Program-made: the position numbers and the translations under genes
Source: a virus
IMG/VR virus record: IMGVR_UViG_3300046652_000008
Span: 30,920 to 94,919 of that record
Length of the DNA: 64,000 nt
Reading direction: 5' to 3' (one strand)
The notes under the pieces: model-generated
Seen by the model: the letters and a program-made list of their open reading frames with translations, nothing else
Told to the model about the DNA's origin: nothing
Database searches by the model: none
Shown: piece after piece, positions 7,231-33,739 of the stretch
How positions within the stretch are numbered: the stretch's first letter is position 1
How the letters are laid out: each line of letters opens with the position of its first letter

Positions 7231-7449
7231 TTACCCGAAAGCTCCAATGCTTTTTAAAATCTCACTCGCGCATAGTCTGTACTCCATAGCTAAACCAGCG
7301 TACACCAGTGCCTTCGTCACATCATCATGTAGCCCAAGTTCATCGTTGATCCTAGCTCGGATGTCCATCTTGTCTGCAATCTCTAGATATAACGCAGCAT
7401 TAGCCACAGAGCGAGTTCTAAGCATTGCGTCAAATTCTTGCCTTGTCAT
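7231..7449 (-). CDS. hypothetical protein
   Basis: AAGGGG RBS; first gene of the leftward block. Confidence 0.6.
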   Translation of the reverse strand: MTRQEFDAMLRTRSVANAALYLEIADKMDIRARINDELGLHDDVTKALVYAGLAMEYRLCASEILKSIGAFG

Positions 7450-7554
7450 TGCTTACCCCTTAATCGTTATAACACGGATTCGTTTTTTATTTTTTATCAA
7501 AACCAGTGGAGGGGGTAGCCCCAATTTAAGCCTCCGCAATCATGCCACCACCCC

Positions 7555-8368
7555 TTTCGCCTTCCTTTCGCCGTTCGCCTTTCCTTCACACCCATCATAA
7601 GATAGGACAGATATCTATGTAATGCGTTCGTATGGGGAACAAACGGCAAAGACGAAGAAAAAGCGATATCGCCTTCCCTTCTCCCTATGCTTCCCACCCT
7701 CCCGCTTTCGCCTGTGCTTCGCACTCACTAGTGCATTCATAGTAGTACTCTTGGGGGGCGAACAAAAGGCGAAGCGACAGTACGAGTACTATGTTTTACA
7801 TACTAATACGTTTCAGTATTTCACTTATGCTTGATTCTGTACGGTGAGCATACCTGCCTATGTGTATGATTCGACTATGGTTTCATTATTTTCCGCTTCT
7901 TTCGGTATGCAAACAGAACGCGATGAGGGCAGCCCATTCCAGGTATTAGGGTACAATAGGGTTGAATTCGAGTGTCAGCCTGGGGTATTAGCGTACAATA
8001 GAGAGAGAAGCAATAGTATGGCCTAAGGCTATTGGTATGAGTGACATGCGAAGCATAGCAGCTCGAAGTGAGTGCATGAGAACAAAGGGCGAAGGTCACA
8101 GGCTAGCATAAAGGTATTAGCATGGGGGTACTGCGAAGAGACGGAGAACACGAACAGACGACGAAACGAGCATAAGCTTGTGCACCTATATAAGTAGATA
8201 CAAGTGATGCAGCAGAGTGAGAGCGGGATTGACTCCAGACGCCTCGGTCTAATAGTTAGACAAGAGATAGGCACCCAGGCGTAATATACTTGGACAGGCA
8301 CGGCATGAGAAACTTGGAGCACCACGAACAAAAAGCGAACAGGGAAGATAGCCGAACAGATGGCGAAA
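7555..8368. repeat. Dispersed array of about 12 GAAC-N7-GAAN / NTTC-N7-NTTC boxes (LexA-box-like)
   Basis: + copies at 7637, 7654, 7760, 8080, 8135, 8152, 8326 (perfect GAAC-AAAAAGC-GAAC) and 8354; inverse copies at 7555, 7573, 7667 and 7706. Confidence 0.75.
7942..8003 (+). repeat. Direct repeat GGTATTAG(G/C)GTACAATAG, two copies, each containing a -10-like TACAAT
   Basis: Copies start at 7942 and 7984; partial GGTATTAGC at 8113. Confidence 0.6.
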
Positions 8369-8371
8369 ACC

Positions 8372-8417
8372 CGGTAACGCTTACCGCATGGTAAATCTTA
8401 CCCGGTAAGTATTCCCG
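8372..8417. promoter_or_regulatory. Three tandem GGTAA-N3-TTACC palindromes, putative enhancer (UAS)
   Basis: CGGTAAcgcTTACCG 8372-8386, GGTAAatcTTACC 8390-8402, CGGTAAgtaTTCCCG 8403-8417; 80-125 bp upstream of a -24/-12 promoter start. Confidence 0.75.
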
Positions 8418-8452
8418 AAGATAGTTATCTTGAAGGCATAGCGTATCAATAG

Positions 8453-8465
8453 AATCAACAGCTTA
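8453..8465 (+). promoter_or_regulatory. IHF binding site
   Basis: AATCAACAGCTTA is an exact match to WATCAANNNNTTR and lies between the UAS and the promoter. Confidence 0.75.
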
Positions 8466-8470
8466 GGGAG

Positions 8471-8486
8471 TGGCAACAGCATTGCT
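8471..8486 (+). promoter_or_regulatory. sigma54 (-24/-12) promoter
   Basis: TGGCAACAGCATTGCT fits TGGCAC-N5-TTGCW with one mismatch and exact GG-N10-GC spacing; predicted +1 about 8495-8498. Confidence 0.8.
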
Positions 8487-8497
8487 CTTATCATACC

Positions 8498-9200
8498 GTC
8501 CGACGAACTCACACGGACCCGCGAAACGACTGGACAGCCAGAAAAGCCAAGCGCGGATTGACAAAAGAATCAGACCGGACCCCAAACGCGATAGCAGGAT
8601 CTAGATTGGGTTTCATGGGAAGCCGAGAGAATCACCCGCAGACATCCCCGCCGTCAGCCACTCCGCAAAGAGACCAGCAATGGTTCAGGCAATAGGCATA
8701 GTGGATCAACAAGCCGAGTGAAGATCAGAGCCAGCCCACACCGCACGAGTAGGAACGAAATCCCCCGAGCGGCAATGAAATGACAGGGTTAAACGCAGGA
8801 TACCCTAGTGGTACAGTAAGCCGATACCCGAGATGCCAGCACGATGCAATAACAGCATCGAAACATCGCACGCCAGCAGCACAGGACTAAGCCCCTGCTA
8901 GCGTCCTACCAAGAGGATACATGGATACCACCGGAACGCATGGAAACGCGGAGAAACGATCCTAGACTCAGCACGACCCCACACAGGAGACGAGCAGATT
9001 CTAACCGAGACACAAACCGATCGAACAAACGAAAACGACTTGACGAGCCAACACGTTAACCATTAAAGAGCGGACAACGGCATACGGGTAAACTCCGAAT
9101 TGCACGCGCCTATCAATAATGCTAAATCGCAACGCGCCCAACGTGTTAGCCCGTCCAGTCTATTAGCTGCATTCAAACCGAGTACAGCTTATAGGCTGAT
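8498..9200 (+). ncRNA. Putative large structured RNA or leader of unknown class
   Basis: No ORF of 60 aa or more in any frame; T-poor; many hairpins and nested long-range helices; starts at the predicted sigma54 +1. Confidence 0.6.
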
Positions 9201-9214
9201 AAGGACAGCCCACC

Positions 9215-9496
9215 GTGAAGAACAAGAAACGTAACGCAACGCTTCAGGCCGTAGTAGATAAGGCCAACGAATTCATGAACGAATCCCCCGATAGCGACAG
9301 GCCAGCACGCAAGATGCTAGCTGTATTCGTTGACTCCCTGTTATTCGAGGCCCGATGCTACAACGGATATAATTATCTGTATTGGCTTGAGACGGGCTAT
9401 GATCAATGGGTTAAAGATGGAAGACCAGACTTCCTTGAGAAAGACCCGTATATCTACGGACCCACGGGAGACGATTCACGCGTTAGATTCTACTAG
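9215..9496 (+). CDS. hypothetical early protein
   Basis: GTG start with AAGGA RBS directly after a hairpin. Confidence 0.7.
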   Translation: MKNKKRNATLQAVVDKANEFMNESPDSDRPARKMLAVFVDSLLFEARCYNGYNYLYWLETGYDQWVKDGRPDFLEKDPYIYGPTGDDSRVRFY

Positions 9497-20234: not shown

Positions 20235-21299
20235 ATGGCATCAACATTCGATATGGAAACGAAGCCCGTTAAGCGAGACCTTTGGCTCTTTGACGTTAAC
20301 GAAAACGATGTGATCGTGGATCACTCATTTAACGGACGTTTTCAACAGCGCGACGTGACCGCCCTTGTGGATTCGATTCGCACAGAAGGCCAGAAGGTTC
20401 CCGGCTTAGTGCGCCGCGCCCCAGGGGGCAAGGTGTTTTTGGTGGCTGGTTTTGGACGGTGGGACGCGATCAAGAAGCTGAACGCAGAGAACCCCAAGAA
20501 CCCCATCAAGTTCAAGGCCACCATTGTCGAAGGCAACGACACGGACGCATTTCTCTCAAACGTCACAGAAAACTTCGTGCGGGATAACCCGACCTACATG
20601 GACAAGGCTTTTGTGGTATCTCGCCTGACGGACCAATACGGAAAGGGCGATGCCGAGATTGCCAAGATCCTTAACTTCAAGTCGGTGTCTAGCGTCAGCC
20701 AATATCGCGCCCTGATGCGCCTGTCGGATGAGAACCGCCTAAAGCTCCACAGCGGAGAACTCCAGCTTTCCAATGCGCTTTTGCTGGTCGGGCAGACCGA
20801 AGAGGAGCAGAAGGAAGCCGTACAAGCCGCCACAACACCAGAAGGTAAGGTCGATTCTGCCAAAGTGCGCGAGAAGGTGCGGGAAATCCGAGAGCGCAAG
20901 GCCACGCCCAAGGTGGAAGCGCCCAAGACCGACGATGAGCGAGTTGACGAAGCTATTGCCAAGGGAGAAGTACCGCCCAAGGGCACAGGCCAGAGTGAGC
21001 CGAGCTATCGCCGGGAAGTCCTCAACATGCTCAACGACGGGGAAGAAGAGGCCGCTATTGCCAAAGCAATCAAGGCCGAGCCGACCAAGAAGACTAAGGG
21101 AGAGAAGGCGCTTGAGCGGACGATGCGCGACGTGAAGCGCTTCCATGAGAATCTGTCAAATACTAACCGTGGTGTATTTTTGTTCGCCTCCGCGCTTACT
21201 CGCTACATTTCAGGCGAGTTGTCGGACGAACAGTATTACTCGGCGCTGGAGTTGGCCGCGAACGCGAATGCAACCAAGGCGAAGAAGGTTGGCGTATAA
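20235..21299 (+). CDS. ParB/Srx-like N-terminal domain plus HTH protein
   Basis: LVDSIRTEGQKVP, LVAGFGRWDA, ENFVRDN, HTH EIAKILN..SSVSQY. Confidence 0.8.
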   Translation: MASTFDMETKPVKRDLWLFDVNENDVIVDHSFNGRFQQRDVTALVDSIRTEGQKVPGLVRRAPGGKVFLVAGFGRWDAIKKLNAENPKNPIKFKATIVEGNDTDAFLSNVTENFVRDNPTYMDKAFVVSRLTDQYGKGDAEIAKILNFKSVSSVSQYRALMRLSDENRLKLHSGELQLSNALLLVGQTEEEQKEAVQAATTPEGKVDSAKVREKVREIRERKATPKVEAPKTDDERVDEAIAKGEVPPKGTGQSEPSYRREVLNMLNDGEEEAAIAKAIKAEPTKKTKGEKALERTMRDVKRFHENLSNTNRGVFLFASALTRYISGELSDEQYYSALELAANANATKAKKVGV

Positions 21300-21401
21300 T
21301 CATTCATGAGCTTTCGTAGAGGAGAAGCCCCAATACGCGTATCAATTTTGGGGATATCTGACTACGGCGGCACCGCTACTGACTGACGGCGCTACTGGCA
21401 A

Positions 21402-21638
21402 GTGAGCGAGATCGCCTGCCTTCATCTCCAAGGAGGCCCCGTGCGAGACAGGAAGAAATTCTACATTTACAAGTCCTACCTGGGCCAATGGTACGGTGGA
21501 TGGTGTGTCATACTCCCCGATTCCCTTTGGGGGGAAATCGGGAATACCCATTGGTGCGCCACTTGGCGCGAGGCTATCCGGTTTGTAGATGACCTCATTA
21601 GGAGACGAAAGAACCAGCTTAGGGGAGAAACAATATGA
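21402..21638 (+). CDS. hypothetical protein
   Basis: Co-oriented ORF. Confidence 0.45.
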   Translation: MSEIACLHLQGGPVRDRKKFYIYKSYLGQWYGGWCVILPDSLWGEIGNTHWCATWREAIRFVDDLIRRRKNQLRGETI

Positions 21639-21807
21639 TTATTTTTCAATGGTATTTTTTGGTTACGGAACTGATTACGATATTGATTTACGTAGCCAAC
21701 CTATTAACCGCTGAGAAGCCCAGCGATGTTGGGAGTAACCTTGTTTACCTGCTGTTAGCTGGCGCGCAACTTGGATTTTTCTGTTATCTTTACTGGAGGT
21801 AGACCGC

Positions 21808-22137
21808 ATGAAACATCGCGTAATATACACATTTACGGTAGTAGGTGGAGATCCTAGAAAAGATCGGATGCGCTCTCGCGTATGGGGCTACACGTTCGAT
21901 AGGGGCCAAGCCGAGCACATCATCGAGACAAATAGTACAGACCTAGCCGAAAATGGGTATTACGGCTATGCTGTTCTTGGTGAAGTTGGAGAAGGACCGG
22001 GTGCAATCCCAACCGAACTACAATGGTATAGGATGAGCTTTTGGGAGAGAACGAGCGGGACATTCCGCACTTTCCTTGGCGCTGAAAAAATCAGCAAGCC
22101 AGACATTTACAAAAAAGTCTTTTTTGGAGGTATCTAG
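21808..22137 (+). CDS. hypothetical protein
   Basis: GGAGG RBS. Confidence 0.7.
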   Translation: MKHRVIYTFTVVGGDPRKDRMRSRVWGYTFDRGQAEHIIETNSTDLAENGYYGYAVLGEVGEGPGAIPTELQWYRMSFWERTSGTFRTFLGAEKISKPDIYKKVFFGGI

Positions 22138-22138
22138 T

Positions 22139-22357
22139 ATGGCATGTAAGATTCACGGTTGCAGCGAGACGAACATGAGGCGGCGCGAAGTGGTGTGTTT
22201 TAAGCACTGGGCCAAACTGCCCAAGGAGCTTAGGTCTATCATCCGCGAAGGCGCAGGGCATGACCAGACGCTCCGCGCCAAGCCTAGCGATGAATGGCTT
22301 CGCAAGGCCAATGAAGCGGTAAGGCCGAGAACGCAGGTTCAGGTTAATCCCGAGTAG
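22139..22357 (+). CDS. hypothetical Zn-finger protein
   Basis: CKIHGC...CFKHW; GGAGG RBS. Confidence 0.65.
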   Translation: MACKIHGCSETNMRRREVVCFKHWAKLPKELRSIIREGAGHDQTLRAKPSDEWLRKANEAVRPRTQVQVNPE

Positions 22358-22393
22358 GAGAGCGTTGCCGAGAAACATAGGACGTGGTGATAT

Positions 22394-22846
22394 ATGACGC
22401 ATGAAGAAGTTGTAAGACTAGCAGCACAGGCACGAGAGTTATCCCAGAACATCCAGGCGGTAGCCGACTCGCACGCTATTGAACTCAAGAAGGCGCAAGC
22501 CGCCCACAAGAAGATCACAGCAGAGATCACAGAAGAAACGGCTTTTGACGCAGCCGAACTAACGATGGCAAAGGCAGAGATCCTCAGCTATCACTTATCA
22601 GTTAGCGGAGCACATGAGCCAATCCCATACGTCTCTTTTCGAGGGGCCGGGAAGCTGGCTTGTATTGGTGTAGACATGGACGCACTACTGGAAGACTGTC
22701 GTAAAAATCCAGAACTCACACGATTCATAACGCTTGACGAGACCATAGTTAACTCTAGACTGGAATCAATGGGGATGGCTCATGGCCTACCTGAATCTAT
22801 AATCATCGACAAAGCGCCCGAGACGGTAGTTATAGCCAAGAAATGA
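22394..22846 (+). CDS. hypothetical protein, possibly Gam/Gp157-like
   Basis: Helical N-terminus then VSFR...VDMDALL...LDET; family assignment weak. Confidence 0.5.
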   Translation: MTHEEVVRLAAQARELSQNIQAVADSHAIELKKAQAAHKKITAEITEETAFDAAELTMAKAEILSYHLSVSGAHEPIPYVSFRGAGKLACIGVDMDALLEDCRKNPELTRFITLDETIVNSRLESMGMAHGLPESIIIDKAPETVVIAKK

Positions 22847-22852
22847 GATATT

Positions 22853-23047
22853 ATGGACAACGAGAAAACACCCGTATGTTGGCCAACCGACAGATGTGAG
22901 GAGTGGGGGCCGGATTGGACGTGCTGGAATTGCAAGACCGTCAATTACGGAATCCGCGAGAAGTGTAGATCATGTGGGTACGATTCCAATACCGGAGAGT
23001 TCCCTTGGTATAACCCGCTGCCGCCATATGAAGGGCTAGGGGAATGA
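22853..23047 (+). CDS. RanBP2-type zinc finger protein
   Basis: WTCWNCKTVNYGIREKCRSC matches W-x-C-x2-C-x3-N-x6-C-x2-C. Confidence 0.7.
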   Translation: MDNEKTPVCWPTDRCEEWGPDWTCWNCKTVNYGIREKCRSCGYDSNTGEFPWYNPLPPYEGLGE

Positions 23048-23337
23048 CGCAAGATGAGTGTGATTCCATTAACGCTTTCCAGAATTGCGGAGTAGTCCAC
23101 CCGTTAACCTGCGTAACCCACTCGCAGCTAGAGCCGCTGGAGGCCCGTCAAGACGGGTTTCTGCATTGCCTGCATTGTGATTATCGTCAATTCACGCCGG
23201 GAGGATATTTAGCTGACTGGCATTGGAAGAAGGTCTTTGGGGCAGGGACGATGGCGAAGATAATGGAGCATAACCTTAACGATTATCACGAACGAACAGG
23301 AAGGCCGATAGGCCCAAAGGAGAACGAGCATGTTTAG
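23044..23337 (+). CDS. hypothetical protein
   Basis: FQNCGVVHPLTC...CLHCDYRQ. Confidence 0.65.
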   Translation: MTQDECDSINAFQNCGVVHPLTCVTHSQLEPLEARQDGFLHCLHCDYRQFTPGGYLADWHWKKVFGAGTMAKIMEHNLNDYHERTGRPIGPKENEHV

Positions 23338-23545
23338 TTGCCAACAGAAACGAGACATTGCAGACGCAGTGCAGAAGGTGTTACGCGCAACGAACCATCC
23401 AGAACTGCCAGAAACGGAAATCCAATTCACGCTTTGCGTAGATGGTGCAGCGCCTTGGAGCTACGCCAGAATCCTTAACAATGGCGCGGCACAAACCCCA
23501 GGAATCAATCCGTGGAACGAACGACAGGACAACCATGAAACTTGA
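23330..23545 (+). CDS. hypothetical protein
   Basis: AAGGAG RBS. Confidence 0.65.
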   Translation: MFSCQQKRDIADAVQKVLRATNHPELPETEIQFTLCVDGAAPWSYARILNNGAAQTPGINPWNERQDNHET

Positions 23546-23711
23546 ATTTGTGCGAAAATACCCAGGGTTCAAGCTAGCCCTATGGTTTGGGAAATACTAT
23601 CGCCATTGCGCTGGCTTCGATGGGTACCTATATCGCGGAGAATGGTGCGTTTACGCTGGGACCCACTCTCATCCTTGGCATAGGCCAAAGTTCTATTTTT
23701 TCTTGAACTAA
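23535..23711 (+). CDS. hypothetical protein
   Basis: AGGA RBS, packed. Confidence 0.5.
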   Translation: MKLEFVRKYPGFKLALWFGKYYRHCAGFDGYLYRGEWCVYAGTHSHPWHRPKFYFFLN

Positions 23712-23715
23712 CCCA

Positions 23716-24117
23716 ATGCGGCCTATAGACAAACTCTTGAAGTCTGCTGGCGACATCGTTCTGTCATCTCCGCAGATGCGCTATAACCACATAGCTTGGA
23801 TTATGCGCAAAGATCGAGTTGTATCTATCGGCGTTAATAGTTATCGAACGCATCCGATAGCGAAACGGCTCAAGATCAAAAAGCTAGCCGAGGGCCAGTG
23901 TGCCGAGCTAAACGCATGTCTAAAAGTTGGACTATCGCATCGTGATGGGCTACCTGACTTCTCCCGGCTGGATATGCTTGTAGTCAAGATTAACAAGGAT
24001 GGATCTTTTGGGAACTCGCTGCCTTGCGCTGGGTGCAGAGAGCTAATAAGGCAGTGCGGCTTCCGCAAGGTGTGGTACTCTAGCTCAGAAGGGGAAATTA
24101 CGCAGTATGAAATTTAA
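23716..24117 (+). CDS. cytidine/dCMP deaminase-fold protein
   Basis: VVSIGVN, CAE, PCAGC, VWYS. Confidence 0.8.
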   Translation: MRPIDKLLKSAGDIVLSSPQMRYNHIAWIMRKDRVVSIGVNSYRTHPIAKRLKIKKLAEGQCAELNACLKVGLSHRDGLPDFSRLDMLVVKINKDGSFGNSLPCAGCRELIRQCGFRKVWYSSSEGEITQYEI

Positions 24118-24424
24118 TATCGGCGGACGCGTTTACACCGTGAAGTTCGTCCACTCCACCTACGCTCCGAAAGTAGGAGAAGATCGGAAAGAAATCACCA
24201 CTTGCCAACTAAGGGAATACCGATATGGCGAATCACAGCCGCCAGACTTTGTGGATAACTTCGGCGCTGTTGGCCGTTTTTGGCTGGACATGCCCAGTGA
24301 AGTCACGGCGCACAAGAAATCCCTAGCGCGAGCCATGAAGAACGCCGGATACGGAAAAGAACTACGCGAAAAGCTGTGGACTGCGTATTTCAGTCGGCGC
24401 AAGCACAACAGCAGATACGAGTAG
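24107..24424 (+). CDS. hypothetical protein
   Basis: Packed ORF. Confidence 0.65.
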   Translation: MKFNIGGRVYTVKFVHSTYAPKVGEDRKEITTCQLREYRYGESQPPDFVDNFGAVGRFWLDMPSEVTAHKKSLARAMKNAGYGKELREKLWTAYFSRRKHNSRYE

Positions 24425-32628: not shown

Positions 32629-33739
32629 TTACACAAATGCCGCGTATGGTATAAATCCAGCCGATTGGCCGCTTGAACTTTCGCAGGCGCGTGGCCTTGT
32701 CTTAGACGACAATGGAAAAGTTATTTCTCGCGGATTTGGCAAGTTCTGGGAGCTAACCCCATCTACTGTCCAGAAGATAGAAGAAAACAAAGAGAAGGCG
32801 TATACCATCAGCGAAAAAATGGATGGAGTGCTCATCTGCGTATTCGGTTATCGCGGAGAGATTATCGTCCATACTCGCGGATCTTGGGGTAACGAGTTTA
32901 TTGACGAGGCCATAACCCTCTTTGAAGACAAGTACCCGGAGTATTGGCATAATCTATTAGACGACCCCCATGAGTATAATGAAGATGGACATGGATATGG
33001 TATAGACTATGGACGCACCGACTGCTTTGAGCTAATCTCGCCAGTCAGCCGGATTGTCGTAGACTACATAGGGAGGCGTGGTCTTTCATGGCTCCAGTCT
33101 TTCTGGATCTATAACCAGTCGGGAGAACTTAACGGAGCGGCGCTGCATCCGCTGCGCGACATGAGCAACCATTTGTATCTATGCGATGCTGACGAGGTAG
33201 CCGGATGGACCCTATCTGAACATACCCCGAACCTCACGCTAGATAGTTTTACCTCCAAGGCCAGCAACGACCAGGAGGGATACGTTATCTACCTTCCATG
33301 GTGCAACGAGTATTACAAGTTCAAGTTTGCAGACTACAAAGCTAAGCACCGAGCGGTATTTAATACGTCCGATATGTCGGTTTGGGATACATGGCGCTAT
33401 GGCGATAATATAGCCCAAGACTTGATCGACTGTACGGCCAAGATTGACATCAAGCTTTCCGGCTGGATATCTGAACAGGTCGGTTGGCTTTCGCTGCGCC
33501 GTGCTAACTTGCTAAATGAGGCTAACTATGTATACAAAAAATGCATCCTCAACGGTGAATCAGCACGAGCAGACTTCGCGCGTAGGGTCTTAGCCGAAGC
33601 TAAAAGACGCACGCCATGCATCAAGAGCATGGTCTTTGCCCTGTATGACGGCAAGGAACAAGAGGCTGAGTCTATCGCAGCCAAGGCGCTGAAACCGGAT
33701 AAGACTGCGTTCTACCGTCAGGAGGATATAACCGCATGA
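32513..33739 (+). CDS. T4 Rnl1-like RNA ligase
   Basis: ARGLV, RGFGKFW, motif I EKMDG, TRGSW, FELISP..RIVVDY, EGYV, KFKFADY; AAGGAG RBS. Confidence 0.88.
   Translation: MALPRDQRLTPLRETLQELIGQKLVKANRHPRLPLTLYNYTNAAYGINPADWPLELSQARGLVLDDNGKVISRGFGKFWELTPSTVQKIEENKEKAYTISEKMDGVLICVFGYRGEIIVHTRGSWGNEFIDEAITLFEDKYPEYWHNLLDDPHEYNEDGHGYGIDYGRTDCFELISPVSRIVVDYIGRRGLSWLQSFWIYNQSGELNGAALHPLRDMSNHLYLCDADEVAGWTLSEHTPNLTLDSFTSKASNDQEGYVIYLPWCNEYYKFKFADYKAKHRAVFNTSDMSVWDTWRYGDNIAQDLIDCTAKIDIKLSGWISEQVGWLSLRRANLLNEANYVYKKCILNGESARADFARRVLAEAKRRTPCIKSMVFALYDGKEQEAESIAAKALKPDKTAFYRQEDITA

Follow-up and report, generated by a model that had tools for sequence, protein, structure and literature searches.

An uncultured peat phage carries 11 good and 2 degenerate copies of a LexA-type operator box in the gene-free region between its two early operons, and the same box stands in the lexA and recA promoters of genomes of its inferred host lineage, the Bryobacterales (Acidobacteriota). 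The window analysed is a stretch of 64,000 nucleotides, positions 30,920-94,919 of the 94,919-bp IMG/VR contig IMGVR_UViG_3300046652_000008, which is classed as linear and about 76% complete. Coordinates below refer to this window. The preliminary description had reported an array of about 12 LexA-box-like direct repeats in non-coding DNA at 7555-8368, and this observation is confirmed, each listed box being present within 1 nt of the position given for it. The phage probably ties its early genes to the SOS state of the host or soaks up the repressor, and the evidence does not decide between these two functions.

The array occupies the left part of an ORF-free control region (7450-9214), the largest gene-free stretch of the contig. 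The genes to its left run leftward, beginning with the first gene of the leftward early operon (7231-7449, minus strand), and are small with no known family. To its right, the rightward early operon begins at 9215-9496 (plus strand) and continues with small genes, a MoxR-type AAA ATPase and DUF7192, followed by helicases, primase, Erf, exonucleases, RNA ligase and RNR. The region contains no credible ORF under the standard code, and no long frame opens when TGA, TAG or TAA is reassigned. A search against Rfam returned no match, and a tRNA search of the region returned none.

Aligned, the repeat unit is a 15-mer, CGAAs-RRARG-GCGAA, consisting of two CGAA half-sites in an 11-bp register, the second usually GGCGAA. 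All 13 copies keep this register. The motif had first been written GAAC-N7-GAAC, but it is better described as CGAA-N7-CGAA with a strongly kept GGCGAA half. Only the site at 8326 is a perfect GAAC-N7-GAAC, and the sole other one in the 95 kb lies at 33218. On the left side, two minus-oriented LexA-type boxes, CGAAAGGAAGGCGAA (7556-7570) and TGAAGGAAAGGCGAA (7574-7588), are followed by a weak plus-oriented box, GGAACAAACGGCAAA (7636-7650), which resembles the GAATAAATGGCAAAG box found after the -10 of many host lexA promoters. The plus-oriented box CGAAGAAAAAGCGAT (7653-7667) forms a tail-to-tail palindrome with the adjoining degenerate minus-oriented box AGAAGGGAAGGCGAT (7668-7682), and a further minus-oriented box, CGAAGCACAGGCGAA, lies at 7707-7721. 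All remaining boxes are plus-oriented: the consensus box GGCGAACAAAAGGCGAA (7757-7773, its 15-mer beginning at 7759), the extra, degenerate copy CAAACAGAACGCGAT (7910-7924), the weak box AGAACAAAGGGCGAA (8079-8093), CGAAGAGACGGAGAA (8134-8148), CGAACAGACGACGAA (8151-8165), the consensus box CGAACAAAAAGCGAA (8325-8339), which with the next base gives the perfect GAAC-N7-GAAC, and CGAACAGATGGCGAA (8353-8367). Four of the six left-hand boxes are thus minus-oriented and all seven right-hand boxes are plus-oriented, so that, read as TTCG to TTCG, the boxes point towards a centre at about 7780-7900 (Fisher p about 0.02).

The boxes are confined to this region. CGAA-N7-CGAA occurs six times in the whole contig on both strands, in each case within 7556-8367, and it is the most enriched gapped dyad of 7450-8400 against the rest of the genome (6 vs 0, Poisson 2e-17). 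A matrix built from the 12 listed copies scores them 17.9-24.6, including 18.0 for the degenerate box at 7668; the next hit, at 15.4, is the thirteenth copy at 7910, and the best hit outside the region scores 14.9. An equal frequency of the motif across the genome had been named beforehand as an outcome that would overturn the LexA reading, and the counts show the opposite.

The host is inferred from indirect evidence, namely the peat source, distant kinship to a cultured acidobacterial phage and the box type itself. The public sequencing runs that contain the stretch are all peat metagenomes. No DNA relative was found in the phage collection searched, and queries with five different proteins found no close relative in IMG/VR. 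The nearest cultured phage is Tunturiibacter phage Tunturi_3, a 97.6-kb lytic podovirus of an acidobacterium, with which five proteins are shared at 25-43% identity (PMC11924767). The Clp-like ATPase of the phage has its best genome hits almost entirely in Bryobacterales/Solibacteraceae MAGs, several from peat; the identities (48-55%) are no higher than those to an Arcobacter or a Bordetella MAG, and we regard this as no more than a hint. A 76%-identical homologue of the AAA ATPase (P0002) is encoded on an 18-kb JGI contig, which was not examined, so that conservation of the array was not tested; assembled contigs from four peat runs gave only identical sequence at low depth, without variants. 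A search with the AAA ATPase found no relative of the phage in 401 Acidobacteriota genomes.

To compare the array with host operators, we took 35 lexA loci and 30 recA loci from genomes of the order Bryobacterales and read their promoters. Many lexA promoters read TTGACT/TTGCAT, then TTCCCnTTTTCTTCGCC, then CACAAT/TAGAAT, and many carry a second box, AGAAGGCGAAGG or AAATGGCAAAGA, directly after the -10. TTCG-N7-TTCG with at most one mismatch is present in 17 of 30 recA promoters, at a fixed place (-115 to -77), in one orientation and 7-9 nt before a TAnnAT -10, while 11 of 35 lexA promoters carry it between -35 and -10 and many more have variants. About 0.03 matches per sequence are expected by chance. 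The phage-derived matrix finds these host boxes at 13-24 bits. De novo dyads on the pooled host promoters were dominated by closely related lexA promoters and by the recA coding start, and were not used as evidence. The 15-mer of array site 8325 is identical, base for base, to boxes upstream of recA in two of the loci (L126 and L151), and the recurring host 17-mer TTCGCCTTTTGTTCGCC, found in two of the host genomes (G001 and G003), is the reverse complement of array site 7757-7773 (17 of 17). The strict pattern TTCNNNNTTTNTTCGCC gives 25 hits in five host genomes against 3 for its reversed control; four of these are lexA promoters and one precedes a DinB-family gene.

A matrix built only from the 25 distinct host boxes, and therefore independent of the phage, was then run over the contig. 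All 7 hits of 15 or more, 9 of 11 hits of 12 or more and 11 of 22 hits of 10 or more are array boxes, whereas host boxes score 10.1-24.2 when left out in turn. The individual scores are 15.6 (7556), 15.5 (7574), 11.7 (7636), 17.7 (7653), 12.4 (7707), 23.4 (7757), 10.8 (8079), 13.8 (8134), 16.3 (8151), 24.5 (8325) and 19.0 (8353); the degenerate box at 7668 falls below 8. The box strengths are thus graded from 10.8 to 24.5, with a median near 15.5, below the host median of about 19.

A direct-repeat box in front of both lexA and recA is the classical signature of the LexA operator, and the GTTC-N7-GTTC class is documented for Alphaproteobacteria (PMC3323433, PMC12700426). Acidobacterium capsulatum reportedly has a LexA box tied to lateral acquisition of the alphaproteobacterial lexA gene (Mazon et al. 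2006), and its motif, as the preliminary description also stated, is reported to be GTTC-N7-GTTC. A different LexA motif in the host had likewise been put forward in advance as a finding that would count against the reading, and the same box stands in lexA and recA promoters of Bryobacterales genomes. The interpretation of the array as LexA-type boxes is therefore supported, and we hold it with high confidence, although binding by LexA and induction by DNA damage were not assayed here and no RNA run containing the stretch was listed. Whether the boxes serve as an SOS-coupled switch or as a decoy, the two functions proposed at the outset, is left undecided by these data, and the alternatives proposed alongside them, iterons, packaging sites or operators of a phage protein, found little or no support.

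Promoters in the control region could only be identified as consensus matches. Leftward candidates are the sigma-70-like TTGCAT-16-AATAAT at 7912-7885, and ATTACA-18-TATGAT at 7623-7594. Candidate rightward early promoters are two copies of an 18-bp repeat, GGTATTAG(G/C)GTACAATAG, at 7942-8001, each holding a TACAAT -10-like element; host recA promoters use TACAAT. Further right, at 8471-8486 (plus strand), lies a sigma-54-like -24/-12 element, TGGCAA-N5-TTGCT, which is not part of the array; TGGCA-N6-TTGC occurs only 3 times in the contig. Two boxes have a host-like relation to a promoter-like site. Box 7574 is the only one with the host SOS-promoter geometry, the box being followed after 9 nt by TAAGAT at 7598-7603, pointing rightward, and the degenerate box at 7910 overlaps the -35 of the leftward candidate at 7912-7885. 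As only these 1-2 of 13 boxes overlap a promoter-like site and the promoters are consensus guesses, the observed geometry does not settle whether the boxes abut the promoters they would control. If the central candidates are real, almost all boxes lie in the two long leaders downstream of divergent starts. Reading the boxes themselves as promoters, including as ECF-type -35 elements, was rejected because their flanks carry no fixed -10. A response-regulator reading found no Trans_reg_C domain in the contig, and for an enhancer-binding protein the only PF00158 hit is a weak cross-hit on a Clp-like ATPase. Resemblances to Spo0A boxes and to P1 parS box B are only partial and were dropped.

What the analysis itself demonstrates is that the boxes are confined to the control region and match those of Bryobacterales lexA and recA promoters up to base-for-base identity; the mechanism that follows is our inference. 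We postulate that the array is a set of operators for host LexA, of the direct-repeat GTTC-N7-GTTC class in its acidobacterial form TTCGCC-TTTT-R-TTCGCC. In an undamaged cell, LexA dimers would occupy the stronger boxes on both sides of the central promoter segment (about 7885-8000) and would also cover one or two promoter-like sites, throttling early transcription in both directions by promoter occlusion and by roadblocks in the long leaders. RecA-stimulated LexA cleavage during SOS would lift the block, and titration of LexA would be a secondary consequence once the genome has replicated to many copies. We consider this explanation as a whole about as likely as not, and the proposal that SOS gating of early transcription is the main job of the boxes remains tentative, somewhat less likely than not. 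The gene set looks virulent, with its own helicases, primase, RNR and tRNAs and no lysogeny genes, and the related Tunturi phages are lytic (PMC11924767), so that it is unclear why such a phage would let LexA silence its early genes. Alphaproteobacterial-type LexA can also enhance transcription, as reported for Rhodobacter sphaeroides recA, which leaves the sign of the effect open. Searches of the contig found no CI/LexA-type repressor (no Peptidase_S24 or LexA_DNA_bind match), integrase or ParA, in line with the preliminary description, which saw no repressor or integrase in the window. As 24% of the genome is absent and most early genes are unannotated, the missing repressor leaves undecided whether host LexA is the repressor of this phage, and an undetected gene cannot be excluded.

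The main rival, which we consider unlikely as the primary function but which is not exclusive with gating, is a LexA sink. As the genome replicates to a hundred or more copies, over a thousand operators would compete with what may be only a few dozen host operators, switching on the SOS regulon (RecA, repair and other functions) without DNA damage, to the benefit of the phage. The array has 11-13 boxes in 0.8 kb, against 3-8 strict-pattern boxes in a whole 7-10 Mb host genome, most boxes are not in promoter geometry, the phage looks virulent and replicates with its own machinery, and clusters recur in other large phages. However, the graded strengths, on average below those of host operators, look like an operator set and not an optimised sponge, the clusters always sit in early control regions, and their polarity is mirrored about the promoter segment. 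No benefit of SOS induction to this phage has been identified.

The boxes could instead be read by a phage-encoded DNA-binding protein that shares or mimics LexA specificity, acting as an early-to-middle switch or at a centromere-like loading site. A candidate is the orphan ParB-like protein at 20235-21299, which has an HTH_ParB domain (23.8 bits, above the cut-off), or an unknown early protein, since most early genes have no known family; clustered repeats in a divergent control region are typical of phage regulators such as phi29 p4. We consider this very unlikely, as base-for-base identity with host lexA and recA operators is hard to explain without LexA, and the same clusters occur in phages that share no proteins with this one near their arrays. 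In addition, parS sites are normally palindromes whereas the boxes are direct repeats, the ParB-like gene lies 12 kb away, and no ParA, LexA-like or winged-helix response-regulator domain was found in the contig. An iteron-type replication origin, or a packaging or terminus element, is more improbable still. Oriented repeats do flank a slightly AT-richer centre (7800-7900, 62-64% A+T), and the AT skew changes sign near 8000, but there are no DnaA boxes in 7450-9214 and no initiator gene nearby, the flanking genes matching no family. The cumulative GC-skew minimum lies about 8 kb away, the repeats are irregularly spaced and not in tandem, and the motif equals host SOS operators. Least likely is a role in RNA, as a protein-binding word in two divergent leader transcripts or in a leftward small RNA ending at the hairpin and T-run at 7523-7497. 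Most copies would read in the same sense on transcripts leaving the centre, a terminator-like site lies at 7523-7507 on the minus strand, and the minus strand of 7490-7745 folds somewhat better than shuffles (z -2.3, against -1.0 for the plus strand). This fold signal is weak, boxes 7636 and 7653 are antisense to their neighbours, and in host genomes the same word sits in the untranscribed -35 and spacer DNA.

Dispersed clusters of the same box occur in other phages. A scan of IMG/VR with a two-box pattern mostly returned 11-bp tandem repeats, which are not arrays of this kind, but also two dispersed clusters. The first is in a complete 102-kb genome with direct terminal repeats (G066), in which seven of nine CGAA-N7-CGAA lie at 21,357-24,174, in two early-type control regions, a 370-bp divergent intergenic region and a 900-bp gene-poor region ahead of small rightward genes; the stretch examined shares no protein with the present phage. 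The second genome (G067), a relative of Tunturi_3, is 75% complete, its DNA polymerase is 44% identical to that of Tunturi_3, and all six of its CGAA-N7-CGAA lie within 1 kb. In Tunturi_3 itself, the two best host-matrix hits (20.0 and 19.0) and a third (13.4) lie in its 1.66-kb gene-free gap at 78,676-80,337. It is possible, though doubtful at present, that large, virulent-type phages of Acidobacteriota (this one, G066, G067 and the cultured lytic Tunturi_3) use clusters of host LexA operators, with no repressor of their own, as a damage-gated hold on early transcription, a repressor-free dormancy or carrier state that ends when the host enters SOS. Once the genome has replicated, the clusters would double as a LexA sponge that forces SOS on, which would be a general way for "lytic" phages to read and rewrite the host SOS state. 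The analysis also yields an extended LexA box for Bryobacterales (TTCGCC-TTTT-R-TTCGCC) and points to Tunturi_3 with Tunturiibacter psychrotolerans as a cultured test system.

Direct use of host LexA by phages is known from a few temperate systems with one to three boxes. A literature search found no description of such arrays, nor of a LexA-titrating locus on a phage, in the papers searched. An array of a dozen operators spanning the whole early control region of a phage of about 125 kb with a virulent-type gene set would imply that "lytic" phages may sense, or manipulate, the DNA-damage state of the host, and may do so without any repressor of their own, which bears on how soil phages persist in slow-growing hosts such as Acidobacteriota. 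Titration loci such as E. coli datA for DnaA or the P1 incA iterons are comparable in that many binding sites clustered in non-coding DNA could buffer the free level of a regulator, but those loci bind replication initiators. Cellular SOS promoters with operators of the GTTC-N7-GTTC class share the 15-bp direct repeat with its 11-bp register, yet carry one to three boxes placed over the -35 or spacer or just after the -10, whereas here 11-13 boxes are spread over 0.8 kb of phage DNA, mostly outside promoter geometry and with mirrored polarity, and in this lineage the kept letters are TTCG(CC) and not GTTC. Host LexA also couples phage gene expression to SOS at antirepressor or regulator genes of temperate phages, including coliphage 186 tum, CTXphi and the Gifsy antirepressors (PMC3121763), but through single operators at one gene in lysogenic phages. 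The closest known system is the betatectivirus GIL01 switch, in which a phage without a CI-type repressor uses host LexA directly at dinBox1/dinBox1b of its early promoter P1, helped by the phage protein gp7 (PMC4551915, PMC6182141). There LexA binds downstream of the transcription start, as postulated here for the long leaders, at one strong and one weak site (PMC4551915), and the present set likewise mixes strong and weak boxes. No gp7 or gp6 counterpart is recognisable in the present phage, although none was searched for by sequence, and temperate or episomal maintenance as in GIL01 found no support, only the orphan ParB-like gene being present in the contig. GIL01 is a 15-kb temperate linear plasmid-prophage of Bacillus with two or three palindromic boxes, whereas the phage described here is about 125 kb in size, with a virulent-type gene set and 11-13 direct-repeat boxes.

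The ORF-free control region carries further sequence elements next to the LexA-type boxes. An 18-bp repeat, GGTATTAG(G/C)GTACAATAG, occurs twice, at window positions 7942-7959 and 7984-8001, with the two copies lying 42 bp apart and weaker echoes at 8112 and 9557. We regard these as candidate tandem early promoters. A terminator-like hairpin followed by a T-run (window 7497-7523, minus strand) sits just upstream of the first leftward gene, where it could end a short leftward RNA or act as an attenuator. At window positions 8372-8417, alternating GGTAA and TTACC units spell GTAA-N3-TTAC twice and TTAC-N3-GTAA once (at 8398). The latter corresponds to the Bdellovibrio-type LexA box (PMC3323433), a resemblance that is probably coincidental.

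Outside this region, a second sigma-54-like element, TGGCAT-N5-TTGCT, was observed on the plus strand at contig position 23,483 (window -7436), about 0.5 kb upstream of a structured-RNA region. The pattern TGGCA-N6-TTGC occurs only 3 times in the contig. The phage further encodes an orphan ParB-family protein of 354 amino acids (window 20235-21299, plus strand), in which the HTH_ParB domain scores above the cut-off while the ParB_N match is weak. No ParA was found in the contig.

Dispersed clusters of the same box are carried by two other IMG/VR phages, G066 (locus L274, G066:C1:15000-30000) and G067 (locus L275, G067:C1:17000-32000). In the cultured lytic acidobacterial phage Tunturi_3, three LexA-type boxes lie within a gene-free gap of 1.66 kb (L008:26677-28338, corresponding to positions 78,676-80,337 of the Tunturi_3 record), which also holds five tandem 13-bp repeats (TATTGAGTACGTT) and several other repeat families. 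G066 and Tunturi_3 both carry a short tyrosine-recombinase-like ORF, with open frames of 184 and 194 amino acids.

On the host side, Bryobacterales genomes hold a second class of lexA, seen at the lexA loci L095, L109, L110, and L118, whose promoters carry TACTGTAAAT..TTACAGTA boxes of the type found in E. coli. Some recA copies (recA loci L135, L153, L127, and L142) are preceded by that box or by another palindrome, AGTGTAAT..TACACTA. These observations suggest that two or three SOS-type regulators are present per genome.
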